Assembly: GCA_030835135.1 (NCBI GenBank)
Contig: JAUQWO010000079.1
Span: 39,396-103,395 of the forward strand
Direction of reading: 5' to 3'
From: Bacteroidota bacterium
Lineage (GTDB): Bacteria > Bacteroidota > Ignavibacteria > UBA10030 > UBA6906
DNA: 64,000 nucleotides
Under the pieces are notes generated by a model. That model ran no database searches, was not told the origin of the DNA, and saw only the letters and a program-made list of their open reading frames with translations. Positions within the stretch are counted from its first letter, which is position 1; each line of letters opens with the position of its first letter. The position numbers were made by a program, and so were the translations under genes. Below are positions 31,202 to 58,655 of the stretch, one piece after another.

Positions 31202-32053
31202 TCAAGGCGCTACATCATGGGCCGACGAGTCCACACGGGCAGTATCCGGCGTTGTGGCGGGAGGGATCTTGTACACCGGCTCGTCCGCCTCCTCCGCGGG
31301 GATCGCCTGCTCCTCGGCCGGGGTGATCTTGATCGGCTGGGGCTGTTCGCGCTTCCAGAAGTAGTAGAATGCAAAGGCAAGGAGTGCGATCGTTGCGACG
31401 ATCGCGATACGGAGCGGCCATACTGTCCGTTTCTCCTCCGGGGGCGGCGGGGGAGCCGGCTGCCCGACCGGTTCCGCGGGCTTGCGGACCGCGCCGTTCT
31501 CCAATCCGCTTTCATCGAAGACCAGCGTCTTCCTCCTGCTGAGTTCGAGCATCTGCAGCACCTTCAATTCGAACTCCCGTGCAAACCGATCGCGGTCGTC
31601 GATGATGAACACGCGCCTGATCTCGGAAAGGGCCTTGTCGTACTCCTTCTTCAGCACATAGGAATGCGCACGTTGCAGGTACTGGTTCTTGAGCCACTGG
31701 CGTGCTGCGCGCACCTGTTCACGCTGCTCGGGAGCCGGTTCCGGCTGACCCGCCGTCTCCGGGGCCGGTGTTGGCGGAGCTTCCGCGGCGGTCGCATTTG
31801 CCACGATCCCGGCGAGCGAGTCGATGATATCCTTCCGCTGGTCGTCGGTCAGCGTCCCTGATGCCAGATGCTCCTGGATCTGTTCGATCTGCCGTTCGAA
31901 TGCGAGAATGAAGACGTTGCTGGGATCGAGCCCCCGTGCCTTGCGTATCGCCGTGAGAGCTTCCTGGATCGCTCCGGAACCCGCGTGGTCGCGCGCTTCC
32001 CCGAGAAGCCGGCGAACGAGCGCCTGTGCGTGGGCTTTGTCGTCGTTAGTCAT
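31202..32053 (-). CDS. TPR-like bitopic membrane protein, paralog of the N-terminal half of 28453..29829
   Basis: Start MTNDD overlaps the GH31 stop; LKNQYLQRA...ALSEIRRV; TM IAIVATIALLAFAFYYFW. Confidence 0.78.
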   Translation of the reverse strand: MTNDDKAHAQALVRRLLGEARDHAGSGAIQEALTAIRKARGLDPSNVFILAFERQIEQIQEHLASGTLTDDQRKDIIDSLAGIVANATAAEAPPTPAPETAGQPEPAPEQREQVRAARQWLKNQYLQRAHSYVLKKEYDKALSEIRRVFIIDDRDRFAREFELKVLQMLELSRRKTLVFDESGLENGAVRKPAEPVGQPAPPPPPEEKRTVWPLRIAIVATIALLAFAFYYFWKREQPQPIKITPAEEQAIPAEEADEPVYKIPPATTPDTARVDSSAHDVAP

Positions 32054-34523
32054 GGTCGATCTCGATTCGTTGCGCTGTCCGCGCGTCCGTGCACCGCACC
32101 GTGATCTCACGGGCTGAAGCGTCATACGCCCAGCCGGCAACACCGGGAACCGGCACGGCGGCGAGCTGGCCCACCACCGTCCCGTTGATATGCACTGCCG
32201 TCGGCGGCTTGTCCGCATCGACGATCCGTATCGCCAGTGTGCGGGTGGGCGGGAGGTATGAACCCTCCGCCGCGCCGATATCGATGATGAGGCGGGGGCC
32301 GATCCGCTGTTGTGCGTGCGTGCGCCGCAGCAGAACGCCCTTCTGGAAATCGAAGGATATCCCGTCGTCCTCGTAGTACGACTGTGTGGAGGTCCCGTTC
32401 GCCCGCAACGGATACACGGTGAGCGTCAGCGGGTCGATCGGTTGCTCGCCGGTGTGTTGCATCACCTGTTGAGACGGAAGGATGGCACCTTCGCGCACGT
32501 AGAGCGGGATGCGTTCCAGCGGTGCGGCCACCGTGGTGTCGCGGCCCCCCGTAACCGGCACGCCCGTCCAGAGATCGTACCAGGTTCCGTGAGGGAATCG
32601 CACCTCACGTGAACGGGCGTCCGCGGTGAGGACCGGCGCGACGAGGATATCACGTCCGAACAGGAAGCTGGACGATTCCTGCAGGAAGCGTCCGTCCGAT
32701 GGATACTCCAGGAGAAGCGGCCGCATGGCAGGGAGGCCGGTGGCGCTGGCTTCGGCCATGACGTTGTACATGTACGGGAGCAGACGATACCGCAGCTGGA
32801 GGCTTGCTCGGTTGATCGCGGTGAACGCCTCACCGTACTCCCATGGCTCCTTGTTCTTCTCGTTGATCACGGAGTGGGCGCGCATCAGCGGGGTGAAGAC
32901 GCCGAGCTGCATCCACCGCGCGAACAGTTCACCGGATGGGTAGCCGATGAATCCGCCGATGTCGCTGCCGCAGAACGGCTGACCGGACAGGCCCCAGTTG
33001 AGACACATCGTGAGGGCGAGGGAGAGGTGCTCCCACGAGGAGACGTTGTCTCCCGTCCACCCCGCGCTGTACCGCTGTCCACCCGCATACGAGGCACGGG
33101 TGAGGACGAACGGGCGTTCGGCCGGATTATGGCGGAGGGCGCCTTCGTACGATGCCCGCGTCATCTGCATCCCGTAGACGTTGTGGTTCCTGGAATGCGG
33201 GGTGCGCAGCCCGCCGTCGTTGTGGATCACGTTCAGGTCGACGGTTTTCGTGGGCACATTGAAGACCGATGGCTCGTTCATGTCATTCCAGAATCCGCGC
33301 ACGCCGGAGCGCACGAGATCCTCCATCTGATCGCCCCACCACCGCCGCCCACCCTCGGAGGAGAAGTCCGGGAATGCACACCGGCCCGGCCAGACATCCC
33401 CGTAGAACACCCGTCCGTCGGGGTAGGTGAGGAAGTGCTTTCCGGCAAGTCCGGTGGTGAATGCCGCATAGGTCGAATCGGCCTTGATGCCGGGGTCAAG
33501 GATGACGGCAACGTGGAAGCCGTCCGCGGTGAGGTCCCGGAGCAACTGCTGGGGCGCGGGAAAATTCTTCGCGCTCCAGGTGAAGACGCGGTACCCTTCC
33601 ATGTAGTCGATGTCGAGGTAGATCACATCACAGGGCATGGATCGTGAACGGAAACCCCGGGCGATCTCGCGGACCCGTGTGTCCGGCGCATAGCTCCACC
33701 GGCACTGCTGGTAGCCGAGCGCCCAGCGCGGCGGCAGGGGCATGCGCCCGACGAGGGCCGTGAAGCGCTCGATCACCGTACGCGGGGCGGGGCCGGCGAT
33801 GACATAGTAATTGAGTTCTCCCCCCTCGGCGCCGAAGGCATACTGATCGCGGGATTCCTTGCCCATGTCGAAGGACGACCAGTACGTGTTGTCGAAGAAG
33901 ACCCCGTGCGCTTTCCCGCCATCGACCGCCATGAAGAACGGGATCGATTGATACAACGGATCGGTGGTGGAGCCATACGCCGGGATGTCGGAATTCCACA
34001 TCGTGACCGCGCTGTTGCGCTTGTCCAGCGTTCCCGATTTCTCGCCAAGCCCGTAATAATGAGCGTCGGGAGGCATGCTCTGCCACACGCGCACGGAGGC
34101 CGTTGCCCCGGCCGTCCAGGCCATCCCCTTGTCCGGATGATCCTGTGTCAGGACCCTGCCGGTGGAATCGGTGATGGTGATCCGCACGGGCTTCTTGGTG
34201 ATCGTCACCCGCAGTGCAGGTGTGGTGAGCGTGAGCGCCCCCGGGGCGTCGGCGAATTCGGTTGCCGGTGCCGGCCACCGTGCGGGGATCACGGCATGCG
34301 ACACGTCAGGGGGGAGTTTCCCTGATGGTGATGGTGGGATGCAGCGGACGCGCGCGACATGGTCGCTGAGCAGGCTGACCTCGACCGTGGCGCCGGTTGC
34401 TTTCAGGATAACGGTGTTGCCCCCGCGTACGACGTACGAATCGGCGTTGCCGATGCTCTGCCATCCGGCCTCGAGCCGGAGTGCCATGAGGAGAAGGAGG
34501 GAACACAACACAAGCCGTCGCAT
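32046..34523 (-). CDS. Alpha-glucosidase (GH31), secreted
   Basis: Signal peptide; YGLGEK, LYQSIPF, GYQQCRWSY, LDIDYM, GFWNDMNEP, WTGDN, GSDIGGF, YEDDG. Confidence 0.94.
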   Translation of the reverse strand: MRRLVLCSLLLLMALRLEAGWQSIGNADSYVVRGGNTVILKATGATVEVSLLSDHVARVRCIPPSPSGKLPPDVSHAVIPARWPAPATEFADAPGALTLTTPALRVTITKKPVRITITDSTGRVLTQDHPDKGMAWTAGATASVRVWQSMPPDAHYYGLGEKSGTLDKRNSAVTMWNSDIPAYGSTTDPLYQSIPFFMAVDGGKAHGVFFDNTYWSSFDMGKESRDQYAFGAEGGELNYYVIAGPAPRTVIERFTALVGRMPLPPRWALGYQQCRWSYAPDTRVREIARGFRSRSMPCDVIYLDIDYMEGYRVFTWSAKNFPAPQQLLRDLTADGFHVAVILDPGIKADSTYAAFTTGLAGKHFLTYPDGRVFYGDVWPGRCAFPDFSSEGGRRWWGDQMEDLVRSGVRGFWNDMNEPSVFNVPTKTVDLNVIHNDGGLRTPHSRNHNVYGMQMTRASYEGALRHNPAERPFVLTRASYAGGQRYSAGWTGDNVSSWEHLSLALTMCLNWGLSGQPFCGSDIGGFIGYPSGELFARWMQLGVFTPLMRAHSVINEKNKEPWEYGEAFTAINRASLQLRYRLLPYMYNVMAEASATGLPAMRPLLLEYPSDGRFLQESSSFLFGRDILVAPVLTADARSREVRFPHGTWYDLWTGVPVTGGRDTTVAAPLERIPLYVREGAILPSQQVMQHTGEQPIDPLTLTVYPLRANGTSTQSYYEDDGISFDFQKGVLLRRTHAQQRIGPRLIIDIGAAEGSYLPPTRTLAIRIVDADKPPTAVHINGTVVGQLAAVPVPGVAGWAYDASAREITVRCTDARTAQRIEIDHD

Positions 34524-34545
34524 GAGAGGTTCCTGCATGTCGGTG

Positions 34546-35649
34546 TCAGAGTGCCTGCTCGGTTGCGGCGTCGAACAGATGAATGCGGGAGAGATCGAAC
34601 AGGAGCTCGCACGGTTTGCCGACCTCGGGTGCCTGCTCCGAGGCGATCCGGGCGACGAGGTGCGAAGCCGACCCGGACGAGAAGTAGATGAAGATCTCGT
34701 TGCCGACCGGTTCAACGACCTCGACCGTGGCGGGTACCGTTGCCAGTGCGCCGACGCCTGAGGGCGGGTGAAGGTAGATATGTTCGGGGCGGATGCCGAG
34801 GGTCACGTTCCCGTGCTGGCCCTGTCCCACGCGGGCGGCGAGCTCGGACGGGAGCGTGAGATGCGTCCACGCCGTCGTTTGCGTGAACGCGAGAGCGCCG
34901 TTTCGGGAGAGGGATCCCGGGATGAAGTTCATCGTCGGGCTGCCGATGAACCCTGCCACGAATTTATTGACGGGCCGGTGATAGATCGCGAGTGGCGCAT
35001 CGACCTGCTGGACCACCCCGTCGCGCATGACGACGATGCGGTCGCCCATGGACATGGCCTCGATCTGGTCGTGGGTGACGTAGATCATGGTGGTCTTCAG
35101 GCGGTGATGCAGCCGTGAGATCTCGGTGCGCATCTGGACGCGCAGGTTCGCGTCGAGGTTGCTCAATGGTTCGTCGAAGAGGAATACCTTGGGTTGGCGG
35201 ACGATCGCGCGTCCGAGTGCGACACGCTGGCGTTGGCCACCGGAGAGGGCTTTGGGTTTGCGGTCGAGGTACGACTCGATCCCGAGGATCTTCGCGGCCT
35301 CGCGCACGCGCTGGTCGATCTCCGCCTTCGGATACTTGCGGAGCTTGAGTCCGAAGGCCATGTTCTCGTACACGCTCATGTGTGGATAGAGCGCGTAGTT
35401 CTGGAACACCATGGCGATGTCCCGGTCCTTGGGTGCCACATCGTTGACCACGCGGCCATCGATGCTGATGGTACCGCCGGAGATCTCTTCCAGACCGGCG
35501 ATCATGCGGAGGACGGTGGACTTCCCGCAGCCTGATGGGCCGACGAGGACGACGAATTCCTGATCGCGGATCGTGGTGGTAACTTCGCGGACAGCTGTGA
35601 CCTTGCCTTCATAGACCTTGGACACCGAATCGAGCTTTACTTCGGCCAT
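34546..35649 (-). CDS. Sugar ABC transporter ATP-binding protein (MalK/MsmK/UgpC-like)
   Basis: GPSGCGKST, VFQNYALYPHM, LSGGQRQRVALGRA, DEPLSNLD, YVTHDQ, GIRPE, TOBE domain. Confidence 0.95.
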   Translation of the reverse strand: MAEVKLDSVSKVYEGKVTAVREVTTTIRDQEFVVLVGPSGCGKSTVLRMIAGLEEISGGTISIDGRVVNDVAPKDRDIAMVFQNYALYPHMSVYENMAFGLKLRKYPKAEIDQRVREAAKILGIESYLDRKPKALSGGQRQRVALGRAIVRQPKVFLFDEPLSNLDANLRVQMRTEISRLHHRLKTTMIYVTHDQIEAMSMGDRIVVMRDGVVQQVDAPLAIYHRPVNKFVAGFIGSPTMNFIPGSLSRNGALAFTQTTAWTHLTLPSELAARVGQGQHGNVTLGIRPEHIYLHPPSGVGALATVPATVEVVEPVGNEIFIYFSSGSASHLVARIASEQAPEVGKPCELLFDLSRIHLFDAATEQAL

Positions 35650-35804: not shown

Positions 35805-35849
35805 TTGACTCGGGTGATGGAAAGGTGTACCTTTGTGGAAGCGCTTCCA
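35805..35849 (+). promoter_or_regulatory. Sigma70 promoter with a LacI-family operator
   Basis: TTGACT(35805)-17 nt-TACCTT(35828), followed by the perfect palindrome TGGAAGCGCTTCCA (35836-35849). Confidence 0.8.
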
Positions 35850-35904
35850 GAGTTACCCCTGGGGTCCTCCCCGAAACCGATGTGTCACAGCAATGCTCTC
35901 CTCG

Positions 35905-36978
35905 ATGGGTGTTACGATCTATGATCTGGCCCGAGAAGCCGGCGTCGGTATCGGGACCGTGTCGCGGTGTCTGAATAACCACCCGCACGTCTCTCCCGCT
36001 ACACGGGCCCGGGTCCTCTCCATCGTGAAGCGGCTCAATTATCAGCCGCATGCCGGAGCCCAGCGCCTCGCCTCCCGCCGCACCAACACGATCTCCGTCA
36101 TCATCCCGTCGTTCACTAACTACTTCTACGTGCAGACCCTGCAGGGTGTGCAGGACGTTGCAGCGGACATCGGGATGGACCTCATGCTGTACGGTGTCAG
36201 TCATACGGCACAGGTCGAACACTACCTCCGCCGCTCGCTCCACCGCGGCCACGTGGATGGCGTGCTGTTCTTCAGTATGATCCTGCCGGAGAGCTTTGTC
36301 GCGCGCTTCCAGCAGATGCGACTCCCCATGGTCCTCGTCGATGCCTATCACCCGGCGTTCGATTCGATCCGGGTCCAGAACAACGAAGGCGGCTACAGCG
36401 CCACGCATCACCTGCTTTCGCTCGGGCACCGGGATATTGCGATGATCAATGCGAGCCTCGACACCCAGCCGGCAAGGGAGCGGATGGACGGCTACCGGCG
36501 TGCGCTGGAAGGTGCGGGCATCCCGTTCCGCGAGGACCGCGTCATCATCTCGTCCGCGGGGAAGAATGACGGGTTCAATCGGGACGCCGGCCGCGATTCC
36601 ATGCGTCGGCTGCTCACGACCACGTCGGGACCCGGCCGTCCGACCGCGGTCTTCATCGCCAGCGACGTCCAGGCCATCGGTGCATTGGAGGGAGCGCGTG
36701 CGGAAGGCGTGCGCATCCCGGAAGACCTCGCGGTGGTCTCGTTCGATGATATCGAACTTGCGCAGTACGCCGAGCTGACCACGATGCGGCAGCCGATGTA
36801 TGAGATCGGCCGGCTCGCGATGGAAAAATTGATCGCACGCATGAAAGATGCCGATGCCGCTCCCACGCTGTCGTCGTTCGTACCCGACCTCATCGTGAGG
36901 CGATCGTGCGGGGCCGCGGCCCATGCGCTTGCGGGCATTCCGGTCCCGTCCCAACCCGCACCGGTCCAGCATTCGTAA
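35905..36978 (+). CDS. LacI-family transcriptional regulator
   Basis: TIYDLAREAGVGIGTVSRCLN HTH, LNYQP...AQRL hinge, DGVL, IPEDLAVVSFDD, LTTMRQP. Confidence 0.95.
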   Translation: MGVTIYDLAREAGVGIGTVSRCLNNHPHVSPATRARVLSIVKRLNYQPHAGAQRLASRRTNTISVIIPSFTNYFYVQTLQGVQDVAADIGMDLMLYGVSHTAQVEHYLRRSLHRGHVDGVLFFSMILPESFVARFQQMRLPMVLVDAYHPAFDSIRVQNNEGGYSATHHLLSLGHRDIAMINASLDTQPARERMDGYRRALEGAGIPFREDRVIISSAGKNDGFNRDAGRDSMRRLLTTTSGPGRPTAVFIASDVQAIGALEGARAEGVRIPEDLAVVSFDDIELAQYAELTTMRQPMYEIGRLAMEKLIARMKDADAAPTLSSFVPDLIVRRSCGAAAHALAGIPVPSQPAPVQHS

Positions 36979-36999: not shown

Positions 37000-39828
37000 A
37001 TGAACCTCCGTACCACGCTACTCCTCATCCTCGCCCTCGGTATCGCCGTGTCCGCCTTCGCTGGCAACACGGGGAAGATCGCGGGAATCGCGAAGGACGC
37101 GCAGACAGGGGAGACCCTCGTCGGCGTGAACGTCGTCATCGAGGGGACGTCGATGGGCGCTGCCACGAACCTCGACGGCCAGTATGTCATCCTGAACGTG
37201 CCTCCGGGCAAATATACGCTGATCGCGTCCGCCGTGGGCTTCAATAAGAAGACCATCACGAACGTGTCGGTCTCCATCGACCTCACCACGACGATCGACT
37301 TCACGATATCGTCGCAGGTCGTGGATGTTGGCGAGGAAGTGGTCGTCACGGCCGAGCGTCCGCTCGTCCAGCGGGACCTCACGGCGAAGACCGCGGTGGT
37401 CGGCGGCGACCAGATCGCGGCCCTGCCGGTGACCGAGGTGGCGCAGGTGCTGCAACTGCAGGCGGGCTTCGTCGCCGGCAGCCTGCGTGGCGGCCGCAAG
37501 GGCGAGGTCGCGTACTGGATCGACGGTGTGCCCGTGACCGACGGCTTCAACGGCTCGCAGATCGTCGAGGTGAACAAGAACCTCGTGCAGGAACTCCAGC
37601 TCGTCTCCGGCGCCTTCAATGCCGAATACGGACAGGCGATGTCCGGCATCGTCAATATCGCCACCAAGGAAGGGAGCCCGCGGTTCGCAGGCGGGGCGGG
37701 GGCGTACATCGGACAGTACGTCACGACGTACAATGGCGATTCGTTGTTCCCGGGCCTCGGGTCATTCAAGCCCACCGCGATCCGGAATTTCGAAGCGAAC
37801 TTGAGCGGGCCGGTCATCGGCGAAGACCTGACCTTCTTCATCAATGGCCGCTACATCTACTTCGACGGGTGGCGCAAGGGATACCGCCGGTACACGCCGT
37901 CCAACATCTCCTATACGGATGACATCACCCGTCAGTTCACGATGTACCGCGATGCATCAGGCCGCGGCGACAGCGCGGTGGTGCCCATGAACTGGAGCGA
38001 ACGGTACTACGGCCAGGGCAAGCTCACCTGGCGCATCTCGCCCGTGATCAAGCTCAACGCGAACTACATCTATGATTACAACAAGTCCCAGGCGTACGAC
38101 CGGAACTACTTCTACAATCCGGATGGCAAGGGCGTGGATATCAACGACAGCCATACCCTCATCATGCAATTGTCGCACACGCTCAGTTCTTCCACGTTCT
38201 ATACCCTCGGCGCGTCATGGTTCCAGCGCGGATCGAAATACCGCCTGTACGATCTGACGTACGAGCCGGCGACCGACGGGTCGGGCGATCTCATCGAAGC
38301 ACTCAATCCCTCGGGTCCTCATTATGTGCATCCGAAACTGTTCCTGACGGACGATCCGTACAGCTTCTATACCGGCGGTACCGACATGGGCCGGTTCCGC
38401 CGCACGACAACGACGAAGCTGGTGAAGCTGGATGTCTCCTCGCAGCTCGATTTCTCGAATCTGGTGAAGGCCGGCGCCGAGATCCGGTTGAACAATGTGT
38501 TCTACGAGAACATCACGCTCCAGCCCATCGCAGAGCAGTCGGACATCAATCTGGCGACCGCGAACCCCTACATCCGGACGCGCATCCTCCCGCTCTCCTC
38601 GCTCTATCATGACATGTACAATCACAGTCCGAAGGAGCTCTCGGCGTACATCCAGGACAAGATGGAGTTCAAGGACTTCATCCTGAATATCGGTATCCGT
38701 TTCGACTACTTCGATCCCGATGGCTACGTCCTGAACGATGAGCACCCCGATGTGAATGATCCGTTGCACTCCACGTACACGGTGGACGATCCCAACATCT
38801 ACAGCCCCATCAAGCCCGAGAATCGCGCGAAGTCGCTTGCCGAACGCATGACCTACTGGTACCGCAAGGCCAAGGCGAAGTGGCAGTTCAGCCCGCGCAT
38901 CGGCGGCTCCTTCCCGATCACGGCGGAAGGCATCGTGCACTTCTCCTACGGGCACTTCTTCCAGGTGCCGCGGTTCGAACGGCTCTATGAGAACCCCGAC
39001 TTCAAGATCGGATTCGGGACGGGGAATCAGGGCGTGGTCGGGAATGCAGACCTGGAACCGGAACAGACGATCAACGCCGAGATCGGCGTGCAGCAGCAGC
39101 TGGCGCCGGACCTCTCGGTGGACGTGACCGCGTACCTGCGTGACATCCGCGGCCTCACGGGCACGCGGGCAGACGAGATCATCGTCTTCGGCGGGAGCGC
39201 CAAGTACAGCAAGTATGTGAACAGCGATTTCGGGTTTGTGAAGGGCATCGTGCTCACGTTGAACAAGCGATTCGGTGGCGGGTTCTCGGCCACGGTCGAT
39301 TACACGTATCAGGTGGCCAAGGGGAGTGCCTCGGACCCGCAGGAAGCCCGGAACGCGGTCGCGGGCGGTTCATTGCCGGAGGTCCAGCTCACGCCGCTCG
39401 GGTGGGACCAGCGTCACACGCTCAACATGACCGCATCGTATGCCGCACCGCACTGGGGTGTGAGCGCCATCGGTCAGTATGGTAGCGGCACGCCGTACAC
39501 GCCGCGCCGTGCAGCGGACATCACGACACTCCTCACGAACAGCCAGTTGAAACCCGGCTTCTTCAACATTGACCTCCGTGCCTATTATGAGATCAAGGTC
39601 GATCCGTTCAACGTCGTGATCTTTGCACGTGCGTTCAATCTGCTGGACATCCGGAACGAAACGGACGTGTTCGATGACACCGGCCGTGCAGGCTTCACCA
39701 CGGATGAGGCCCGGGTCAGTCTGACGAATCCGCGCCAGCGCATCAATTCACTCGACGAGTGGTACCGGCGTCCGCAGAACTACTCGGAGCCCCGTCGTCT
39801 CGAATTCGGCATGAATCTGGAGTTCTAG
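37000..39828 (+). CDS. TonB-dependent receptor (non-SusC type) with an N-terminal carboxypeptidase-regulatory-like domain
   Basis: Signal peptide; GETLVGVNVVIEGT..GAAT, plug RGGRKGEVAYWIDG, GAFNAEYGQAMSGIVN, FSPRIG, GNADLEPE; C-terminal Phe. Confidence 0.93.
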   Translation: MNLRTTLLLILALGIAVSAFAGNTGKIAGIAKDAQTGETLVGVNVVIEGTSMGAATNLDGQYVILNVPPGKYTLIASAVGFNKKTITNVSVSIDLTTTIDFTISSQVVDVGEEVVVTAERPLVQRDLTAKTAVVGGDQIAALPVTEVAQVLQLQAGFVAGSLRGGRKGEVAYWIDGVPVTDGFNGSQIVEVNKNLVQELQLVSGAFNAEYGQAMSGIVNIATKEGSPRFAGGAGAYIGQYVTTYNGDSLFPGLGSFKPTAIRNFEANLSGPVIGEDLTFFINGRYIYFDGWRKGYRRYTPSNISYTDDITRQFTMYRDASGRGDSAVVPMNWSERYYGQGKLTWRISPVIKLNANYIYDYNKSQAYDRNYFYNPDGKGVDINDSHTLIMQLSHTLSSSTFYTLGASWFQRGSKYRLYDLTYEPATDGSGDLIEALNPSGPHYVHPKLFLTDDPYSFYTGGTDMGRFRRTTTTKLVKLDVSSQLDFSNLVKAGAEIRLNNVFYENITLQPIAEQSDINLATANPYIRTRILPLSSLYHDMYNHSPKELSAYIQDKMEFKDFILNIGIRFDYFDPDGYVLNDEHPDVNDPLHSTYTVDDPNIYSPIKPENRAKSLAERMTYWYRKAKAKWQFSPRIGGSFPITAEGIVHFSYGHFFQVPRFERLYENPDFKIGFGTGNQGVVGNADLEPEQTINAEIGVQQQLAPDLSVDVTAYLRDIRGLTGTRADEIIVFGGSAKYSKYVNSDFGFVKGIVLTLNKRFGGGFSATVDYTYQVAKGSASDPQEARNAVAGGSLPEVQLTPLGWDQRHTLNMTASYAAPHWGVSAIGQYGSGTPYTPRRAADITTLLTNSQLKPGFFNIDLRAYYEIKVDPFNVVIFARAFNLLDIRNETDVFDDTGRAGFTTDEARVSLTNPRQRINSLDEWYRRPQNYSEPRRLEFGMNLEF

Positions 39829-39829
39829 C

Positions 39830-42800
39830 ATGAAAACGATCCGGCTTCTTCTTTTCCTGTCAGCGACAGCACTTCTTGTGGCCGGCTACGGACACGCCCA
39901 GAGCGGCCGCGAGTACCGCCGGTCAGCCGTCATGAACGGCAACCAGGTCCGCACGGTGTTCGGCAACTGGGGCGTCATCGGCCAGCCGACGGACACCCGT
40001 CCGCGTGGCTCCTGGAAGAACGATAACAACGGCTACCTCGGCGATGTGAGTCCCTTCGTCGGTGCCGAGGTCCGGTGGCAGGATACCTCCTTCCGTTCCG
40101 TGGTCTCGAGTCCGGTGGCGCGCCCGACGCAGCTCGCGGACCTCGATCCGGCGACGGGTGAGAACTGGACGTTCGAACCTGTGAACGGGTACTTCGCGCC
40201 GTCGCCGAACCAGAACATCGCGATGAGCAATGATGCGAGGACCTGGCCGGAGGTATGGCCCGATAAGTTGGGAGATGGTGTGGATCCGGGCTGGAAGGGC
40301 TCCTGGAACGGCTACTTTGGCAAACGCATCAGCGCCGATCTGGAATCGTATTTCGTCATGGACGACAATGTGGACCGCCGGTTCAACTTCCCGTTGAACA
40401 ACGCGCGGGGCATCGCGTTCAAACCGGATTCCACCAACGTCAGCCGGAACGGCCTCGCGCTCGAAGTACGCGTGCGCGCGATGCAATGGGCGCAGTTCCT
40501 GGCCCAGGACAACATCTTCTGGCTGTATGAGATCGCCAACAAAGGCACGACCACCTATGACCGCGCCGTGTTCGGCATGCTCGTGGGTACCTATATCGGC
40601 GTCACGGGCAGTGACGGCAGCCCGCAGGAGTACGACGACGACTGGTCGTTCTATGATGTGTTCACCAACATCACGTACACGGCGGACTTCGACCGGAACA
40701 CGCTCCGCAACCCGCGCTGGAATCAGCGCTTCCCGGTCGGCATGGTCGGGTATGCCTTCCTGGAGAGCCCGGGTAACCCGTTCGACGGCATCGACAACGA
40801 TGGCGATGCGGATTCCACGACCATCGGGAGCGCCGCGCCGCAATTCGATGCAACGAGCTTCGACTCGACGTCGATCCGTGCCGGACAGACCATCATCCTG
40901 ATCCGTGATGACTACAGCAGGGTGGCGTTCCTCGTTCCGAACCGCGACTCGGTGAAGATCAAGACCCGTGGCATGCGCGACTCGGTCTGGATCTATCCGG
41001 GCAGGACCAAGGTCGTGGAAGGCAATATCGTCCGCGATATTCTCGGGAACGACGTGGTGAACCGCAATGCCTATGACGGTATCGACAACAATTTCAACGG
41101 CCTGATCGACGAGAACCGGTACCTCCACTACCGTCAGTTCAAGCGGAACCGGAACGCCCCGTTCCAGGTCCTTCTCGACATCCTCCGCCCCGTCCGGCAC
41201 GCCGACGTGGCCGCGGGCGGCGTGGCCAACCCCCTCAGTCTGATCGACGAGCGCCGGAACGACCGGATCGATAACGATCAGGACTGGAACATCGCGTTCG
41301 ATGACGTCGGGCGCGACGGCATCGGGTCGACCGCGGTGAATTATCCGGGACCGGACGCCGGGGAAGGCGACGGCCTGCCCACCTCAGGGTACGATGTCCT
41401 GGGGAAGGACACCGGACTGCCGGGCGAGCCGAACGTCGATAAGACCGACGTGGATGAGTCGGACCAGATCGGCCTCTCGAGCTTCTACTACTTTACGCCC
41501 GCCAACGTGGTGCGGCTCGGTGATGATGAAGAACTCTGGAAGGACCTTGCGCCCGGTTATTTCGATGTGCCGACGTCCATCGTGAACAACAAACCGGAGC
41601 GTGGCGAGGACGGCGATTTCATCTACGGCTCGGGGTACTTTCCGCTGCTGGCGGGTGCGACCGAACGGTTCTCCCTGGCTCTGGTGTACGGTGGCGGCAA
41701 AGGTGGGAGCGTCCAGGATGACATCAACGATCTGTTGAAGAACAAGCGCACCGTCCAGAAGATCTACGATGCGAACTATCAGTTCCCGACGCCGCCGGAC
41801 AAACCGACGCTGGTCGCCGTTCCCGGTGACCGTCAGGTGACGTTGTACTGGGACCGCGTTGCCGAAGCGACCGTAGATCCGGTGCTGCGTACGCGCGACT
41901 TCGAAGGGTACAAGATCTACAAGTCCACCGACCCCGACTTCAGCGACGTCTTCACGATCACCGATGCAACGGGGACGCCCCGCGGGTATCAGCCGCTCGT
42001 GCAGTTCGACATCGTGAACGGCATCCGGGGGTACTTCCAGGCATCCGGCGAACTGTTCCAGGCCGCCGCCGGTTATTCGTTCCGGATGGGCGATGACACC
42101 GGACTCAAGCATTCGTACGTGGACACGGAGGTGGAGAACGGGCGCCGGTACTACTATGCGATCGTTGCCTATGACCGCGGCGATGAAGTGACCGGGATCT
42201 TCCCGGGCGAGAACACCAAGCAGGTGCGCGTGCTCTCCACCGGCGAAGTGGAGAGGGACATCAACGTTGCCGTGGTGACACCCAACGCCCGCAGCGCCGG
42301 GTACGTTGCGCCGGGATCGGGGGTATCCGCGGTGCATCAGGCAGGACCGGCCACCGGTTCGATGATGTTCGGCATCCTCGACCCGAAGGCGCTCACCGGT
42401 CATCGCTACCGTGTCAGTTTCACGGACACGCAGATGGACAGCATCGACAACAACGCCAACGGGAAGCTCGATCTTGCCGACAGCACCGAATGGTCACGGA
42501 TCACGACCTCCTATTCCGTCGAGGATATGGCCGTGATAACGGAGCAGTTCATCAGTCAGGATACGGTGAACATCAGCCTGGGCCGGAAGAATCTGATCGC
42601 CGGCACGATCACGGTCAGGAATCAGCAGGGGAGCACCATTGATCCCGCGAACTACGTGCTGAACACCGCCCGTGGCGCCATCCGTGGCAGTGGCCCCGGC
42701 ACCCTGCCTGCGGGTACCTACACGATCAGCTACCGGTACTACCCCGTGTTCCGGAGTCCGAACCTTCAGGGGTCACCGTACCAGGTGGAGAACGGCGAAT

Positions 42801-43681
42801 CGGACATCTTTGACGGCGTCACGCTGCTGTTCAGCAATTTCTGGTCGGTGAAGGACACCGCGGATGCGACCACCGGCTGGGTAGGCAAGAGTGCGTACGT
42901 CGTCAACCTCGGCGCGACGAACCTTCCGTTGCTGGATCCTCCGCTCCTGGGCTACAAGCGGTCGGCGGACTACGAGATACAATTCGCGAACAGCGTCGTC
43001 GACACTTCGACGGTGGGTCCGTTCCCGTACGACGTTGCCATCCCGGTGAACTTCCGGGTGTACAACCGGACCGACAGCACGTTCGCGAAATTCCTCTTCA
43101 CCGAAGGTCCCTCCGCGAACGGCAACGGCAAGATGTCGCCGCTGGACGAGCTGATCGTCATGGAGAACAACCCCCGGGGCGAACTCTCGCCCACATGGGA
43201 CCTGTTCATCCTAGCGAAGGTAGGCGATCCCTCGGACACAGTGTACAATCTGGGCAACGGGGACAAGTTCATTTTCAAGATGACGAAGCCGTTCCGGAAC
43301 GGTGATGTGTTCGAGTTCGTCACCGAGGTGCCGAAAGTGGACAACGCGGTTGCCGGCGGGAGTCTGGACCGCATCCGCGTGGTCCCGAACCCCTATGTGA
43401 CCGCCGCGGAGTTCGAACCGCCGTTGAACCCGGGTATCACGAGCGGGCGCGGCGAGCGCAAGATGGATTTCACCCATCTTCCTGCCGGGGCCATCATCAA
43501 GATCTTCACGTCGCGCGGGGATCATGTGGTCACCTTGTATCACGACGGTGCCATCGAGGATGGGACGGTGTCGTGGAACCTGAAGACGAAGGAGAATCTG
43601 GACATTGCCTTCGGCGTCTATTTCTATGTCGTTGAATCGCCGGTGGGGAACAAGACCGGCAAGATCGCGATCATTAAGTGA
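39830..43681 (+). CDS. Large secreted surface protein (1283 aa) with Ca-binding motifs, an FN3-like domain and a T9SS-like CTD
   Basis: Signal peptide without lipobox; DGIDNDGD-type motifs; VTLYWD..FEGYKIYKS..YYYAIVAYD; C-terminal VVPNPY..IKIFT..WNL..GVYFY..GKIAIIK. Confidence 0.85.
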   Translation: MKTIRLLLFLSATALLVAGYGHAQSGREYRRSAVMNGNQVRTVFGNWGVIGQPTDTRPRGSWKNDNNGYLGDVSPFVGAEVRWQDTSFRSVVSSPVARPTQLADLDPATGENWTFEPVNGYFAPSPNQNIAMSNDARTWPEVWPDKLGDGVDPGWKGSWNGYFGKRISADLESYFVMDDNVDRRFNFPLNNARGIAFKPDSTNVSRNGLALEVRVRAMQWAQFLAQDNIFWLYEIANKGTTTYDRAVFGMLVGTYIGVTGSDGSPQEYDDDWSFYDVFTNITYTADFDRNTLRNPRWNQRFPVGMVGYAFLESPGNPFDGIDNDGDADSTTIGSAAPQFDATSFDSTSIRAGQTIILIRDDYSRVAFLVPNRDSVKIKTRGMRDSVWIYPGRTKVVEGNIVRDILGNDVVNRNAYDGIDNNFNGLIDENRYLHYRQFKRNRNAPFQVLLDILRPVRHADVAAGGVANPLSLIDERRNDRIDNDQDWNIAFDDVGRDGIGSTAVNYPGPDAGEGDGLPTSGYDVLGKDTGLPGEPNVDKTDVDESDQIGLSSFYYFTPANVVRLGDDEELWKDLAPGYFDVPTSIVNNKPERGEDGDFIYGSGYFPLLAGATERFSLALVYGGGKGGSVQDDINDLLKNKRTVQKIYDANYQFPTPPDKPTLVAVPGDRQVTLYWDRVAEATVDPVLRTRDFEGYKIYKSTDPDFSDVFTITDATGTPRGYQPLVQFDIVNGIRGYFQASGELFQAAAGYSFRMGDDTGLKHSYVDTEVENGRRYYYAIVAYDRGDEVTGIFPGENTKQVRVLSTGEVERDINVAVVTPNARSAGYVAPGSGVSAVHQAGPATGSMMFGILDPKALTGHRYRVSFTDTQMDSIDNNANGKLDLADSTEWSRITTSYSVEDMAVITEQFISQDTVNISLGRKNLIAGTITVRNQQGSTIDPANYVLNTARGAIRGSGPGTLPAGTYTISYRYYPVFRSPNLQGSPYQVENGESDIFDGVTLLFSNFWSVKDTADATTGWVGKSAYVVNLGATNLPLLDPPLLGYKRSADYEIQFANSVVDTSTVGPFPYDVAIPVNFRVYNRTDSTFAKFLFTEGPSANGNGKMSPLDELIVMENNPRGELSPTWDLFILAKVGDPSDTVYNLGNGDKFIFKMTKPFRNGDVFEFVTEVPKVDNAVAGGSLDRIRVVPNPYVTAAEFEPPLNPGITSGRGERKMDFTHLPAGAIIKIFTSRGDHVVTLYHDGAIEDGTVSWNLKTKENLDIAFGVYFYVVESPVGNKTGKIAIIK

Positions 43682-43689
43682 GGATGACC

Positions 43690-44724
43690 ATGAAAACACT
43701 CCGTAGTCTGACCGTGGTGTGCGCGATCGCCGGAATGCTGGTCATCCTGGGTGTGCAGGAGCCGGTGACCGCACAGAGCAAAGTAGGGACCACCGCCGCG
43801 CAGTTCCTCGGCATCTCGGTGGGTCCGCGGGCCATTGCCATGGGCAGTGCGTTCGTCGCGTCGAATGATGATGCCACATCGCTGTACTGGAATCCCGGCG
43901 CCTTCCAGCAGGCCGGGACCTCCCAGCTCACGTTCTCGAACACCGACTGGCTCGTCGGCACCAAGTTCCGCTGGTTCGGTCTGATGCTGAATCTTGGCAG
44001 CGAGGATGCTGTCGGCATCAGTCTCACGCAGCTCGACTATGGCGAGGAGGACGTCACGACCGTTGCGTCCCCGAACGGGACCGGCGAACGGTGGTCGGCC
44101 CAGGACCTGGCGATCGGTGTGTCCTATTGCCGCCGCCTCACGGACCGGTTCTCGATGGGCGGCACGGTGAAGTATGTGGAGCAGCGGATCTGGAACGAGA
44201 GCGCGAGCACGTTCGCATTCGATCTCGGGTTGTTGTTCGTCACGGGCTTCAACGACATGCGGCTCGGTGTGTCGATGTCGAATTTCGGCGGCGAAATGAC
44301 ATTGGCCGGGCGCGACCTGCTCGAGCGCGTAGATATCGATCCGCTGAACTCGGGATCGAACAAGGCGCTGGTGGGGAACCTCAAGACCGATCCCTGGGCC
44401 ATCCCGTTGCTGTTCCGTGTCGGTGTGGCGATGGATGCCTACAAGGATGAGATGTTCCGTGTCACGGTTGCTGCCGATGCGTTGCGCCCGAACGACAATG
44501 ATGAATCGGTGAACGTCGGTGGCGAGTTCGCGTTCAACGATATGGTCTTCCTCCGCGGGGGGTACAAATCGGTCTTCGGGAAGGGACTTGAGGAGGGACT
44601 GTCGCTGGGTGCCGGCGTGAAGTACACCGCCGAGGGGATCGGTGCGCTGGAGGTTGACTATGCGTTCACGAAGTTCGGCTTGTTCGGCAACATCAATACC
44701 ATCGCTCTTTCCGTGGCATTCTGA
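43690..44724 (+). CDS. PorV/PorQ-like (UPF0164) outer-membrane beta-barrel
   Basis: AAQFLGISVGPRAIAMG, ATSLYWNPGA, DLGLLF, PLLFRVG, LRGGY; C-terminal Phe. Confidence 0.88.
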   Translation: MKTLRSLTVVCAIAGMLVILGVQEPVTAQSKVGTTAAQFLGISVGPRAIAMGSAFVASNDDATSLYWNPGAFQQAGTSQLTFSNTDWLVGTKFRWFGLMLNLGSEDAVGISLTQLDYGEEDVTTVASPNGTGERWSAQDLAIGVSYCRRLTDRFSMGGTVKYVEQRIWNESASTFAFDLGLLFVTGFNDMRLGVSMSNFGGEMTLAGRDLLERVDIDPLNSGSNKALVGNLKTDPWAIPLLFRVGVAMDAYKDEMFRVTVAADALRPNDNDESVNVGGEFAFNDMVFLRGGYKSVFGKGLEEGLSLGAGVKYTAEGIGALEVDYAFTKFGLFGNINTIALSVAF

Positions 44725-44822
44725 TCAGGGGGACGGTGCGTCCGTGCGGCATGCGAAGGAAAGGATGGCCGGGGGGAGCTCGTGACGATGCGGTGACGTG
44801 ACGGGTGAGGGGTCGATCGGGC

Positions 44823-44851
44823 TTGACACGGAGAAGGCAATTGTCTACGTT
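44823..44851 (+). promoter_or_regulatory. Internal sigma70 promoter
   Basis: TTGACA-17 nt-TACGTT, 70 nt upstream of the ATG, which has an AAGGAG RBS. Confidence 0.65.
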
Positions 44852-44920
44852 GCACAACACTTTTCGTTTCACGTTGTTTCCGTTGTACCCACAATCCACT
44901 ACACATACAAGGAGTGCATC

Positions 44921-47900
44921 ATGAAACACTTCGCAAAACTTCTGCTTTCGCTGTTGGTGATCGCAGGGGTCTCTTTGGGTTATGCCGGGAGCGCCGAGAA
45001 GACCGCAGAGGAAGGCGGCAAGGTCATCGTTCCGATGAACCCTGCGAACCTCGACGGTCTGAACAGCGGATGGGTTCCCGTCATGCCTGACCAGGGTTCC
45101 GTCACCTACGGTGGCGCACAGTACCTTGCTCCGGCAACGGTGTTCCTGAGCGGTTACAGCACGACGGCGGACTACCTGTACCGTTCGTACGATCATGGGA
45201 ACAGCTGGACGAGGCTGGCCCCGCCGACGAGCAACAAGGGTTTCGTCTTCGCAGCGCGTGACAGCAACCTGGTCGTTGCCGGCACGTTCGGCGGCACCGT
45301 GCTCCGTTCAACGGACGGTGGTGCGACGTGGGACACGACCTATCAGCACGTGGACTACATCGACGGCATCGTGTTCGTCGGCCAGGACACCCTCGTGGCG
45401 TCCGGTGACTTTGACGACAAGGGCTTCCTGATGATCCGCAGCACGGACGCCGGGCAGACCTGGACGCGGCAGACGATCGCTCCGGCGGATTCCGCCATGA
45501 GCTATGCGTACGCCACGTACCGTCAGTCCATCGCGGTGTACAACAAGACCGTGTGGGTGACCCTGTACAAGAGCGGCGTCAATGCCCGCATCATGAAGAG
45601 CGTCGATGCCGGTGCCACATGGACATCGTGGGAAGTGCCGTTGACGGGTGGCACGGCCCAGAACTACTATCTCCGTTCCATCAATATGCTGGATGACAGC
45701 ATCGGCTTCGCGGTCGACCGTCAGGTCGGCTCGGGCCTCGCGAACTATCTCCACCGGACCACCAATGGCGGTCTGACCTGGAGCGATACGCTGAACATGC
45801 AGGCTGGTGCCCACGCGGAAGCCCGCGTGAAGACGGCGAAAGGTATCCCGGGAACGAACAAGGTCATCGTCGGCGGTTTCGGCGCATCGACGGCCAAGAT
45901 GTGGATCTCGGACAACCTCGGTGTTGCCGGCAGCTTCACGCCGGTCGCGGTCCCCGGCACCGATATCACGAACATCGCGATCCTTGATTCCACGCACATG
46001 ATCACGGCTGGAATCAATACCGTGCTGAAGTACACGGGCAAGAACGTGCGTCAGGTGACGTTCCGGCTGAATACCGCGACCGTGCCCGACACGCTGCCGG
46101 TGACAGGTCAGACCGTCCAGATCCGCGGTGGTGTCAATCACGCCGGTGGTGTCTCGCCGATCACCTGGGGCAGCGAAGCCCAGAACAGCATGACCAAGGT
46201 CGGTGGTGACTACTGGAAGAAGACCGTGTACATGCAGGTCGGTGATACGCTGAGCTACAAGTATGTGATCGCGTATTCGACCGGCACGGGCTGGGAGCAG
46301 GGTGTGGTGCCGGCGGATTTCCCGGCGCAGACCAACGCGAACCGCTCGCTGATCGTGCCCGACAAGGACACGACCCTGAATGTCGAGTTCTGGAACAACG
46401 GTGCCAACACCCGTCCGCAGTACTTCCGTCCGTACGCTGACGCGGCCGATTCGTTCTTCACGGTGTACTTCCGCGTGAACATGAACGGCGTCATCTCCGG
46501 CGGTACCTATGGGTACAACGGTGACAAGGACACGCTCGCGGTGCGTGGCGGCGGTTCGGCCGGCAGCGATCTGGATTGGGGACGTTCCTCGTTCCTGACC
46601 CGTGAATCCCCGGCATCGAACGGCGACGGCTATACCAGCCCCGCGAATTCGTTCTGGTCGGCGGGTGTGAAGATCAAGAAAGCCGGCCTCACCGAAGGCG
46701 CGACGATCGGGTTCAAGTACCTCATCGGCTCCGACTGGAACCGTCCGGGTACCGGTGCGAAGGCAGACGAGGCCACGGACCGCAATTTCAAGGTCCCGGT
46801 CGGCTTCCAGGATACCACGCTGACGTGGGTGTACTTCAACAACGAAACCCCGACCGTGCGGGCGAACCCCGACACGATCAAGATCACGTTCCGTGCGAAC
46901 CTGGCCCAGGCCGCTGCCAATGGCGGGTTCAACGTGACGACGGATACCCTGTATGTCCGCACCGGCTACTTCAATACGACCAACGAGTCGGGCCGGAGCA
47001 AGATGATGACCCGTGTTTCCGGTACCATCTTCCAGCTGTCGGATACGATCATCACCGCAAAGAAGAAGGTCATGGACTATCAGTACTATACGGTCCGTGA
47101 CGGGCAGGACATCCGCGAAACCTATTACAACTTCTTCTACACCGGGCCGGTGCCGTCGGAAGCAGAACGCCGCCAGGTGATGATCGATTCGCTCGCATCG
47201 AAGACCGTGGCTCAGGTCGTGCTCGATACGGCGACCTCGATCACCGTCGCCCGCCGTCAGCCCGTGTTCCCGAACGGACGCAAGCTCGCCCGCACGGTGA
47301 ACGTGAAGTGGGAAGTGGACCTCCGTCCGGCCTACTACCAGGTGAAGCTGGGTGGCGATTCGCTGTCCGACATCCAGGGCACGTACACGATCCATACCTC
47401 CGAAGTCGATTCCATCATGAAGTGGGGCGTGTGGATCAACGGTCCGGCCGCTGGTGGCTGGAGCAACGACGGTGGCGATTGGGGTCTGCCGCTGGCAAGC
47501 AACCTTGCCAAGAAGCTGTATGACAACGGCACCAACGGCGACCGTGTCGCCGGCGACTCCATCTTTACGCGTCAGATCCTTGCGTCACCGGACAGCGTCG
47601 CGATCGGCACGAAGGACCGTGTCGGCCAGACCTTCAAGTTCGGTATCCGTGGTGGTGACAACGAAGGCGGCAAGGGCGGTTTCGGCAACAACCACAATGA
47701 GAACATCGTGGACACCGACACCATCTACACCCTGAGCAGCCAGTTCGGCAGCATCAACCCGGCATTCTACGATGCATGGGATTATGACCTGCGCAAGCCC
47801 AAGACCCCGACGAGCGTGTTCGATGCGGACAAGCCGCTGGTGTACGAACTTGCACAGAACTATCCGAACCCCTTCAACCCGACAACCAAGATCGAATACT

Positions 47901-48100
47901 CCATCCCGCTGCAGTCGCAGGTGGAACTGAAGGTCTACAACGTGGTCGGTCAGGAAGTGGCAACGCTGGTGAACGAGGTCCAGAAGTCCGGTGTCCATAA
48001 CGTGAAGTTCAGCGCAACGAACTTTGCCAGTGGCGTGTATTTCTACCGGCTGGTTGCTGGCAACTTCGTCAGCGTGAAGAAGATGGTGCTGGTGAAGTAG
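44921..48100 (+). CDS. T9SS type-A cargo: Asp-box (BNR/YCF48-like) propeller plus tandem CBM20-like domains
   Basis: SYDHGNSW/STDGGATW/STDAGQTW/SVDAGATW/TTNGGLTW repeats; VTFRLN..YKYVI..WE modules; LAQNYPNPFNPTT..SGVYFYRL..KKMVLVK. Confidence 0.85.
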   Translation: MKHFAKLLLSLLVIAGVSLGYAGSAEKTAEEGGKVIVPMNPANLDGLNSGWVPVMPDQGSVTYGGAQYLAPATVFLSGYSTTADYLYRSYDHGNSWTRLAPPTSNKGFVFAARDSNLVVAGTFGGTVLRSTDGGATWDTTYQHVDYIDGIVFVGQDTLVASGDFDDKGFLMIRSTDAGQTWTRQTIAPADSAMSYAYATYRQSIAVYNKTVWVTLYKSGVNARIMKSVDAGATWTSWEVPLTGGTAQNYYLRSINMLDDSIGFAVDRQVGSGLANYLHRTTNGGLTWSDTLNMQAGAHAEARVKTAKGIPGTNKVIVGGFGASTAKMWISDNLGVAGSFTPVAVPGTDITNIAILDSTHMITAGINTVLKYTGKNVRQVTFRLNTATVPDTLPVTGQTVQIRGGVNHAGGVSPITWGSEAQNSMTKVGGDYWKKTVYMQVGDTLSYKYVIAYSTGTGWEQGVVPADFPAQTNANRSLIVPDKDTTLNVEFWNNGANTRPQYFRPYADAADSFFTVYFRVNMNGVISGGTYGYNGDKDTLAVRGGGSAGSDLDWGRSSFLTRESPASNGDGYTSPANSFWSAGVKIKKAGLTEGATIGFKYLIGSDWNRPGTGAKADEATDRNFKVPVGFQDTTLTWVYFNNETPTVRANPDTIKITFRANLAQAAANGGFNVTTDTLYVRTGYFNTTNESGRSKMMTRVSGTIFQLSDTIITAKKKVMDYQYYTVRDGQDIRETYYNFFYTGPVPSEAERRQVMIDSLASKTVAQVVLDTATSITVARRQPVFPNGRKLARTVNVKWEVDLRPAYYQVKLGGDSLSDIQGTYTIHTSEVDSIMKWGVWINGPAAGGWSNDGGDWGLPLASNLAKKLYDNGTNGDRVAGDSIFTRQILASPDSVAIGTKDRVGQTFKFGIRGGDNEGGKGGFGNNHNENIVDTDTIYTLSSQFGSINPAFYDAWDYDLRKPKTPTSVFDADKPLVYELAQNYPNPFNPTTKIEYSIPLQSQVELKVYNVVGQEVATLVNEVQKSGVHNVKFSATNFASGVYFYRLVAGNFVSVKKMVLVK

Positions 48101-48120
48101 GGCGTCACACCGATGTCCGG

Positions 48121-48158
48121 GAAGGCGGTTCCGGCTCCTCCGGAGCCGCCTTCTTTTT
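48121..48158 (+). terminator. Intrinsic terminator
   Basis: GAAGGCGGTTCCGG-CTCCT-CCGGAGCCGCCTTC followed by TTTTT. Confidence 0.85.
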
Positions 48159-48222
48159 GTTTGCGGCAGCCGCAGGACAACGCAACGAACGTAACGACGT
48201 GAACGTGAGTGCCACTACCTCC

Positions 48223-58648: not shown

Positions 58649-58655
58649 GGCGTTC

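Follow-up and report, generated by a model that had tools for sequence, protein, structure and literature searches.

Glycan uptake in the Fibrobacterota-Chlorobiota-Bacteroidota (FCB) group is understood almost wholly through SusC/SusD of the polysaccharide utilization loci (PULs) of Bacteroidia, where a TonB-dependent receptor with a CarboxypepD_reg-type N-terminus is followed by the gene of a large surface-exposed partner, and where many paralogous copies per genome are found, each in a regulated locus together with glycoside hydrolases (GHs). Other described systems that have to be considered here belong to the T9SS, the type IX secretion system. In the parts of PMC10202324 dealing with its barrel proteins, PorU and PorZ retain their C-terminal domains (CTDs) and stay bound to PorV and PorQ, and cognate PorV-like barrels are proposed to shield CTDs from cleavage. 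In the window, i.e. the whole 64,000-nt stretch analysed (from contig JAUQWO010000079.1 of a Bacteroidota bacterium), three consecutive genes code for T (a TonB-dependent receptor), B (a secreted protein of 1283 aa whose family has no name) and V (an outer-membrane barrel of the PorV/PorQ family). On the whole we favour the view that T, B and V work together in the outer membrane as a conserved three-part module of nutrient uptake, in which B, anchored by its CTD, feeds T. The copy described here is probably specific for alpha-glucan or maltodextrin, and judged by sequence comparison the module ranges over Ignavibacteria and further FCB lineages outside Bacteroidia.

The gene order of the triplet was followed in other genomes by a scan with one genome per species, which returned 584 relatives of B, 80 loci being retained. 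According to their record titles these come from Ignavibacteria, 'Bacteroidota' metagenome-assembled genomes (MAGs), Kryptonium, Rhodothermales, Rubricoccaceae, Neomarinimicrobiota, KSB1, Calditrichota and Stahlbacteria. With hidden Markov models (HMMs) built from the paralogues of our genome, T was found directly upstream of B in all 73 loci having at least 600 nt of upstream sequence, and V directly downstream of B in 65 of the 68 loci having at least 600 nt of downstream sequence. None of the three exceptions shows a loss of V (loci and contigs are given by our L and C numbers): in L043 the gene is frameshifted and V is still matched by the fused open reading frame (ORF), in L052 the order is T-V-B, and L087 contains masked N. 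The order T-V-B was seen in two foreign loci, L052 and L072. An apparent truncation of B in L087 (CP070707.1, 5941-7959) is a masked N run in the stored record and no natural short form. Since the order is kept across phyla, the T-B-V arrangement is far beyond chance. The synteny that the preliminary description had called for is thus conserved, Ignavibacteria, Calditrichota and KSB1 included. Furthermore, a profile of the N-terminal module of B, searched against 1.84 billion representatives of 50% identity clusters, retrieved 2027 cluster representatives at E<=0.001 and 512 at E<=1e-30. It should be emphasized that HMMs built from the paralogues of this genome give high self-scores by construction; the evidence independent of them consists of the phmmer scores, the NCBIfam models, an HMM of the variant CTD made from other genomes, and the matches in foreign loci.

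The same genome holds twelve sets of T, a B-like protein and V. When all ORFs of the genome (called, as in the foreign loci, with our own longest-ORF caller and no gene finder) were searched by phmmer, with T, B and V as queries, seven complete triplets of identical gene order were recovered, on C49, C88, C74 (twice), C63, C26 and C13, and five further pairs of a TonB-dependent receptor and V have a more distant middle protein. T itself is one of 12 paralogues at phmmer E<=3.8e-48, the next match being at 6.1e-27. The pairwise divergences of T, B and V are correlated across the 12 modules (Spearman 0.77-0.81, 66 pairs), so that duplication took place in whole units, and the modules are old, since no pair of them exceeds 49% identity; in the C46a/C46c modules the identities of T, B and V are 44, 45 and 46%. 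The preliminary description had spoken of a 'private PorV paralog'. This was right in that V is co-encoded and not a housekeeping protein, and it undersold the case, since the triplet is one of 12 paralogous modules. As a separate observation, the locus C12:43403-57759 (minus strand, L019) comprises a B-like protein (727 aa), a DUF5689-CTD protein, a 589-aa protein of unassigned family, a TonB-dependent receptor, V, an NHL-repeat protein and a patatin-POTRA-Omp85 fusion.

The general plan of receptor, large surface-exposed partner, multiple copies and regulated neighbourhood is common to this module and to SusC/SusD, whereas the components are different. T is a TonB-dependent receptor by its PF00593 barrel (TonB_dep_Rec_b-barrel, 95.6 bits, cut-off 27) and its Plug domain (PF07715, 27.6 bits, cut-off 23.9), and carries an N-terminal CarboxypepD_reg domain (PF13620, 59.2 bits). 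It is not of SusC type: TIGR04056 (SusC/RagA) gave 57.2 bits vs a cut-off of 368.25, over model positions 2-206 only, and none of the 38 matches of this model in the genome is above the cut-off. B has no Cys in its first 30 residues, signal peptide included, and therefore lacks the lipobox of SusD/RagB; a lipobox-like motif was found in the first 45 residues of none of 68 homologues. Models of both halves of B are beta-rich with few helices, so the alpha-helical, TPR-like fold of SusD is not present, and no SusD appeared among the fold matches. Additionally, the SusD models PF07980, PF14322, PF12771 and PF12741 had no match in the whole genome (88 contigs, marker-gene completeness 100%), whereas they do match the control, Bacteroides thetaiotaomicron. 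The early statement that B is not a SusD is borne out by these results. Unlike SusD, B would be attached through a T9SS-type CTD and the PorV/PorQ barrel of the third gene, and not by a lipid anchor. As an adjacent susC/susD pair is missing, the locus is no canonical PUL; with its regulator, receptor and carbohydrate-active enzymes it is otherwise PUL-like, and the same is true of the module loci in general, the absence of SusCD apart.

The distribution of B and SusD was compared in 151 genomes of the phylum, a strong B match being defined by our own cut of E<=1e-90 with the profile A3 (of B; A3 numbering plus 654 gives B numbering); owing to the relatedness of the sampled genomes, the counts are to be read as description only. 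Strong B matches were found in 65 genomes and SusD in 79: both in 37, B only in 28, SusD only in 42, and neither in 44. In the class of the window's own genome, B was strongly matched in 26 of 37 genomes and SusD in 10 of 37. Each of these ten carries one or two SusD matches (PF07980), so that, as far as the sample goes, SusD also occurs outside genomes of the Bacteroidia type. The idea that B and SusD exclude each other within the phylum was considered and rejected, because 37 of the 65 genomes with strong B also carry SusD. Consequently, the 'alternative to SusCD' claimed at the outset holds for this genome, where SusD and SusC are absent, and not as an exclusive replacement.

In B a signal peptide precedes a conserved N-terminal module (residues 24-654), after which come an FN3-like part (about 655-800), a hypervariable part (about 851-1150) and the variant CTD. 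Searches with B gave no Pfam family at E<=0.1, no relative by sequence in the PDB and no named cluster in the ESM Atlas, and its homologues are all labelled 'hypothetical'. The precomputed Pfam label PF27730.1 on one of 120 Rhodothermales homologues of B (P0158) was not reproduced by our Pfam search, in whose models this accession is absent. A single match was obtained in NCBIfam, to the C-terminus of PorZ (E=0.014, residues 1215-1283). AlphaFold2, supplied with 46-row alignments, gave beta-rich models for residues 24-654 (pLDDT 88.0, pTM 0.89) and 655-1283 (pLDDT 89.2, pTM 0.84). For the N-terminal half, Foldseek found no match in the PDB at E<=0.001; the best fold matches (E 0.011-0.1, TM about 0.2) were the beta-supersandwich of GH94/GH149 phosphorylases, dextran dextrinase and YidC, and the likeness of the model to a beta-supersandwich is at most a weak lead to a carbohydrate-binding-type fold. 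The C-terminal half matched FN3 chains, the best being PorZ (5m11, E 4.7e-6), with PorU (6za2) at E 1.2e-3. In 68 homologues the conservation is high at residues 151-350, 451-550 (with acidic repeats of DxDxDG type), 651-800 and 1151-1283, and lowest at 851-1150, where at 901-1000 the top-residue fraction falls to 0.22-0.25 and the gap fraction is 0.40-0.45. B thus combines a conserved scaffold with a hypervariable segment that adjoins the anchor domain; this segment would be the place to look for substrate specificity.

The CTD of B was described from the beginning as a variant differing from the standard CTDs of the locus, and it proved to be a distinct class. An HMM built from the last ~108 residues of B orthologues of other genomes (n=46) picks out 13 proteins of the genome, which score 54-156 bits at full coverage, while standard type-A CTDs reach 27 bits at most; B itself scores 156.4 bits over residues 1178-1283. 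Conversely, the type-A models PF18962 and TIGR04183 gave no match at the C-terminus of B at E<=0.1 and do match neighbouring proteins. It is no type-B CTD either, as CHU_C (PF13585) gave 13.2 bits (E 0.1) vs a cut-off of 27. The motifs VVPNPY, GVYFY and IIK are conserved among B orthologues, and the modelled C-terminus is made of beta-strands. Twelve of the 13 variant-CTD proteins lie in modules with a TonB-dependent receptor and V.

V belongs to the PorV/PorQ family (NF033709, 205.4 bits, cut-off 90, model positions 1-326) and is below the equivalog cut-offs of both PorV (NF033710, 82.1 vs 250) and PorQ (NF033711, 91.9 vs 220); no PorP/SprF model matched it at E<=0.1. Its sole PDB relative by sequence is PorV of F. 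johnsoniae (6h3i_F, E 3.7e-8), a protein present in the entries 6h3i and 8gl6-8gln. Sixteen PorV/PorQ-family matches above the cut-off occur in the genome. The housekeeping PorV (258.9 bits, cut-off 250), PorU (964.5 bits) and SprA are all on contig C69, and PorQ (234.6 bits, cut-off 220) is on contig C45. V was therefore rejected as a housekeeping PorV: it is an extra paralogue, and the possibility that it is the genome's only housekeeping porV, which the preliminary description had named as fatal to its proposal, is removed, as SprA, PorU, PorV and PorQ are encoded elsewhere. Beside these genes two arrangements were observed. The T9SS cluster C69:14517-37082 (minus strand, L103) extends from SprA to PorU, PorV, a 'T9SS-dependent M6-like inactivated metalloprotease' (797 bits) and a TolB-like propeller protein. 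In C36:45855-49334 (minus strand, L105) a 516-aa protein is followed by two tandem PorV/PorQ-family genes (148 and 69 bits) without a TonB-dependent receptor; the 516-aa protein contains a glycosylhydrolase-like region and at its C-terminus gave a match to the C-terminal end of PorU (E 3.4e-7), and the arrangement is one of barrel plus cargo.

The complex of V (residues 34-348) with the CTD of B (residues 1169-1283) was predicted for this single cognate pair, each chain with its own alignment. All three runs gave an ipSAE of 0.91, whereas the best of three controls gave 0.00; of 80 solved complexes 58 reach the mark applied to this score, as do 2 of 110 mismatched pairs. At least 80% of the contacts are common to the runs, and the partner pLDDT is at least 76. 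The predicted contacts on B are at residues 1183-1188, 1226-1233, 1253-1269 and 1274-1283, so that the conserved VVPNP, GVYFY and terminal GKIAIIK segments would lie against the conserved N-terminus and loops of V. The CTD-PorV interface sought in the preliminary description is accordingly predicted, with clean controls.

In this respect the module resembles PorU-PorV and PorZ-PorQ, in which, as these pairs are presented in PMC10202324, a CTD-bearing surface protein keeps its CTD on a PorV/PorQ-family barrel; the likeness to PorZ extends to the weak match of the B C-terminus, to the best fold match of its C-terminal half and to the family of V. Unlike these pairs, V is under the equivalog cut-offs, B has no PorU or PorZ body, and the set is multiplied 12 times, always with a TonB-dependent receptor, while the housekeeping pairs are separately encoded in the same genome. 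The systems of type-B CTDs with PorP/SprF barrels (e.g. SprB/SprF), as far as they are treated in the same parts of PMC10202324, also combine a special CTD class with a dedicated, co-encoded PorV-like barrel; in contrast, the CTD of B is not type-B, V matches the PorV model and not PorP/SprF, and the role proposed here is nutrient uptake, there gliding adhesion.

A different fate of B has to be weighed against anchoring. B might be an ordinary T9SS cargo, a secreted or lipopolysaccharide-linked adhesin or an unrecognised enzyme, with V as its export shuttle; its CTD would then be cleaved, and T would be co-regulated and import what B helps to release or to bind. The similarity of the C-terminal half of B to the T9SS proteins PorZ and PorU fits such a role, PorP/SprF are, in the relevant parts of PMC10202324, PorV-like barrels that carry specific substrates, and the predicted interface of V and the CTD suits a transient shuttle equally with a stable anchor. 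We nevertheless regard this as unlikely: a housekeeping PorV and PorU are present and presumably serve the many standard-CTD proteins of the same loci, a separate CTD class having its own barrel in every module suggests a different fate, and the strict 1:1:1 linkage to a TonB-dependent receptor is unexpected for a mere export helper. Still less probable is a further assignment of V, by which it would partner mainly with T or be a channel of its own (a FadL-type lateral opening, or a BamG-like companion), the CTD of B using the housekeeping PorV. PorV and PorQ are FadL homologues, and in the part of PMC12578637 consulted the FadL-like BamG is a fixed partner in the BAM complex of Bacteroides; furthermore T adjoins V without B between them in the C12 module, and two foreign loci have the order T-V-B. 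On the other hand, variant CTDs and V paralogues match almost one to one (12/13), and it is the conserved N-terminal segment and loops of V which touch the conserved CTD motifs in the prediction that separated so widely from its controls.

The features of the locus are collected in Table 1. The junctions were read directly in the sequence, and the ORFs and the 1-nt and 8-nt gaps first reported for the T-B-V triplet were found to be correct. The LacI stop codon (36976-36978) is followed by 21 nt with AGGAG and then by the ATG of T at 37000; the TAG of T ends at 39828 and one nucleotide separates it from the ATG of B at 39830; the TGA of B ends at 43681, 8 nt before the ATG of V at 43690, and GAGGA stands just upstream of this gap. 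The ORF of V is open from a GTG at 43678, which would give 348 aa. The only strong terminator-like hairpin on the plus strand within 37000-50400 is located behind the BNR gene, and no comparable hairpin was found on this strand between 37000 and 48100. Together with the short gaps this makes (lacI)-T-B-V-BNR the likely transcription unit, and the BNR/sortilin gene is a probable fourth gene of the operon. An orthologue of this CTD-bearing BNR protein stands directly after V in L023, L024, L025, L027, L028, L033, L035, L039 and L085 (357-821 bits), low scores in the table of orthologous neighbours being partly due to shared CTDs. Possibly the BNR/sortilin protein belongs to this alpha-glucan module as a conserved fourth component.

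Table 1. Features of the T-B-V locus (positions in the 64,000-nt window)
Feature	Position	Strand	Basis
GH31 alpha-glucosidase and MalK-like ABC ATPase, divergent from lacI, the operator region being common to both sides	32046-35649	-	GH31 403 bits; ABC_tran 118.6 bits, OB_MalK, TOBE_2
LacI-family regulator	35833-36978	+	Pfam LacI HTH 61.4 bits; Peripla_BP_3 121.6 bits
LacI-type operator-like perfect palindrome TGGAAGCGCTTCCA	35836-35849		malK-lacI divergent region
T (P0001), TonB-dependent receptor, 942 aa, N-terminal CarboxypepD_reg	37000-39828	+	ORF and Pfam
B (P0002), 1283-aa secreted protein, unnamed family	39830-43681	+	ORF; signal peptide
Variant T9SS-like CTD of B (residues ~1178-1283; VVPNPY...GVYFY...GKIAIIK)	43361-43678	+	variant-CTD HMM
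V (P0003), PorV/PorQ-family outer-membrane barrel, cognate to B	43690-44724	+	NF033709 205.4 bits
BNR/sortilin-repeat protein, 1100 aa, standard type-A T9SS CTD	44798-48100	+	PF18962 36.3 bits; Sortilin-Vps10 37.3 bits
Strong terminator-like hairpin	48119-48155	+	16-pair stem with 10 G-C pairs, then T run
Alpha-glucan run: GH13 (575 aa), GH13 (1056 aa), GH57 with CBM48 and CBM20 (931 aa), amylase-like (646 aa)	53850-63278	+	

The surroundings of the module point to glycans. The pattern TGNAANCGNTTNCA, a consensus of LacI-family operators, has one match in the window (TGGAAGCGCTTCCA) vs 0.01 expected. It was matched in 7 of 107 loci overall, and just upstream of lacI in L023, L035, L043, L058 and L078 as well as in the paralogous C63 module (L016). 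The true start of lacI is probably later than the first codon of the ORF, e.g. at the ATG at 35880. In the orthologous loci LacI is kept in 20, GH13 is kept too, and MalK and GH31 stand upstream in 5-6. The preliminary description had named the region a LacI-controlled alpha-glucan locus: the LacI gene, GH31, MalK, GH13 and GH57 were all found, and control by LacI is a proposal that would follow from the operator-like palindrome. The neighbours of the paralogous modules are LacI and a GH94 phosphorylase in C63, a GH18 chitinase with a CTD in C74c, a CBM9-CTD protein and a sodium:solute symporter (SSF) in C88, a ConA-like CTD protein and a peptidyl-prolyl isomerase (PPIase) in C26, an RpiR regulator and a beta-lactamase-fold protein in C13, and patatin-Omp85 and NHL-repeat genes in C12. 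The least probable of the alternatives is that the module imports a non-glycan nutrient (e.g. peptides) next to incidental carbohydrate-active enzymes, for which the lack of a recognised carbohydrate-binding module (CBM) in B and the neighbours of the C13 and C12 modules can be cited, since LacI, GH13, GH31, GH57, GH94, GH18 and CBM9 neighbours recur here, in orthologues and in several paralogous modules, and the LacI-type operator upstream is conserved.

Between the triplet and the alpha-glucan run of Table 1 there are TPR, GDSL and PPIase genes. A PPIC-type, SurA-like PPIase is encoded next to the module in the window (48157-50028, plus strand), at C26:2664-4229 (minus strand) and in 13 foreign loci, possibly as a chaperone of the outer-membrane components.

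For the uptake module of T, B and CTD-binding V that we favour, the following course can be proposed. B would be exported by Sec and then cross the outer membrane via the T9SS, guided by its variant CTD. V, and not the housekeeping PorV, would take up and keep this CTD, and B would thereby be held non-covalently at the cell surface, like PorU on PorV and PorZ on PorQ. Oligosaccharides freed by the T9SS-secreted glycosidases of the locus would be captured by the N-terminal module of B and by its hypervariable, membrane-proximal region, then handed over to T and imported by it, and the whole unit would be controlled by a LacI repressor at the TGGAAGCGCTTCCA operator. The anchoring of B and the status of the triplet as a module are well supported by computation, while the lid and the uptake mechanism, and among the single steps secretion by the T9SS, CTD retention, anchoring at the surface, the binding of glycans and any contact of T with B, are what we infer.

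Several points weigh against this course of events. Since the type-A models miss the CTD of B, its dependence on the T9SS is suggested by resemblance. The docking score of 0.91 may reflect likeness to solved PorV structures, because the only PDB sequence relative of V is the PorV of F. johnsoniae. No CBM was recognisable in B in the Pfam search, and the fold likeness of its N-terminal module is weak. The putative role of B as a 'lid' on T, and the hand-over itself, are drawn by analogy with SusCD. In the C12 module the B-like gene is set apart from T and V by two genes, with T adjoining V. The thirteenth variant-CTD protein of the genome (C49:37880-40735, at the left edge of the window, where it occupies 1-1340 on the minus strand) is an orphan having no T or V beside it. 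Finally, the coexistence of strong B with SusD described above makes the module a parallel system and no plain substitute for SusCD. As regards the orphan, it has 951 aa, a variant-CTD score of 59.5 bits and no Pfam family, and it lies beside a GH2 gene (window 3615-6821, minus strand) and two genes for sodium symporters.

A more far-reaching form of the proposal can be put forward tentatively, as possible rather than probable. T, B and V may form a stable complex in which B, delivered by the T9SS and held by V, caps or feeds T; this would be a second, lipoprotein-independent SusCD-like 'utilisome', FCB-wide (Ignavibacteria, Rhodothermales, Marinimicrobia, KSB1, Calditrichota, WOR-3) and perhaps of earlier origin than SusCD, with the hypervariable region setting the substrate of each paralogue.

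A locus that may already contain this module was found in the literature. According to the published table in PMC6987092, the xylan locus Rmar_1067-1073 of Rhodothermus marinus encodes LacI, the CTD-bearing GH43 and GH10, the TonB-dependent receptor Rmar_1070, the hypothetical protein Rmar_1071 with a Por sorting domain and two hypotheticals, and it also has a SusC/SusD pair (Rmar_1077/1078); in the part of PMC6987092 that presents this locus the hypothetical genes are left uninterpreted. By this table, receptor, CTD hypothetical and further hypotheticals are in the same order as T, B and V, and it is probably the same module, seen without interpretation. Rhodothermales MAGs of our own set carry the module (L098, L100, L102). 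In full-text literature searches, which did not cover supplements, no description of a triplet of a TonB-dependent receptor, a CTD protein and a PorV-like barrel was found. The parts (TonB-dependent receptor, T9SS-like CTD, PorV/PorQ barrel) are of known kinds. What appears not to have been described previously is the family of B with its own class of CTD, the constant grouping of the three genes, the multiple copies of this unit per genome and its distribution over the FCB phyla.

Among the abundant lineages of the environment there are many with hardly any SusD genes, or none, that degrade polysaccharides all the same, e.g. Ignavibacteria, Marinimicrobia, Calditrichota and KSB1. If our interpretation is true, the module would explain how oligosaccharides are captured and imported in such SusD-poor lineages, and it would serve as an annotation marker for PUL-like loci outside Bacteroidia. 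A role would be given to a family of about 2,000 cluster representatives (50% identity), all of them 'hypothetical' at present, and the use of PorV/PorQ barrels would be extended from secretion machinery to nutrient acquisition. The idea is directly testable in cultured Rhodothermales or Ignavibacteria.

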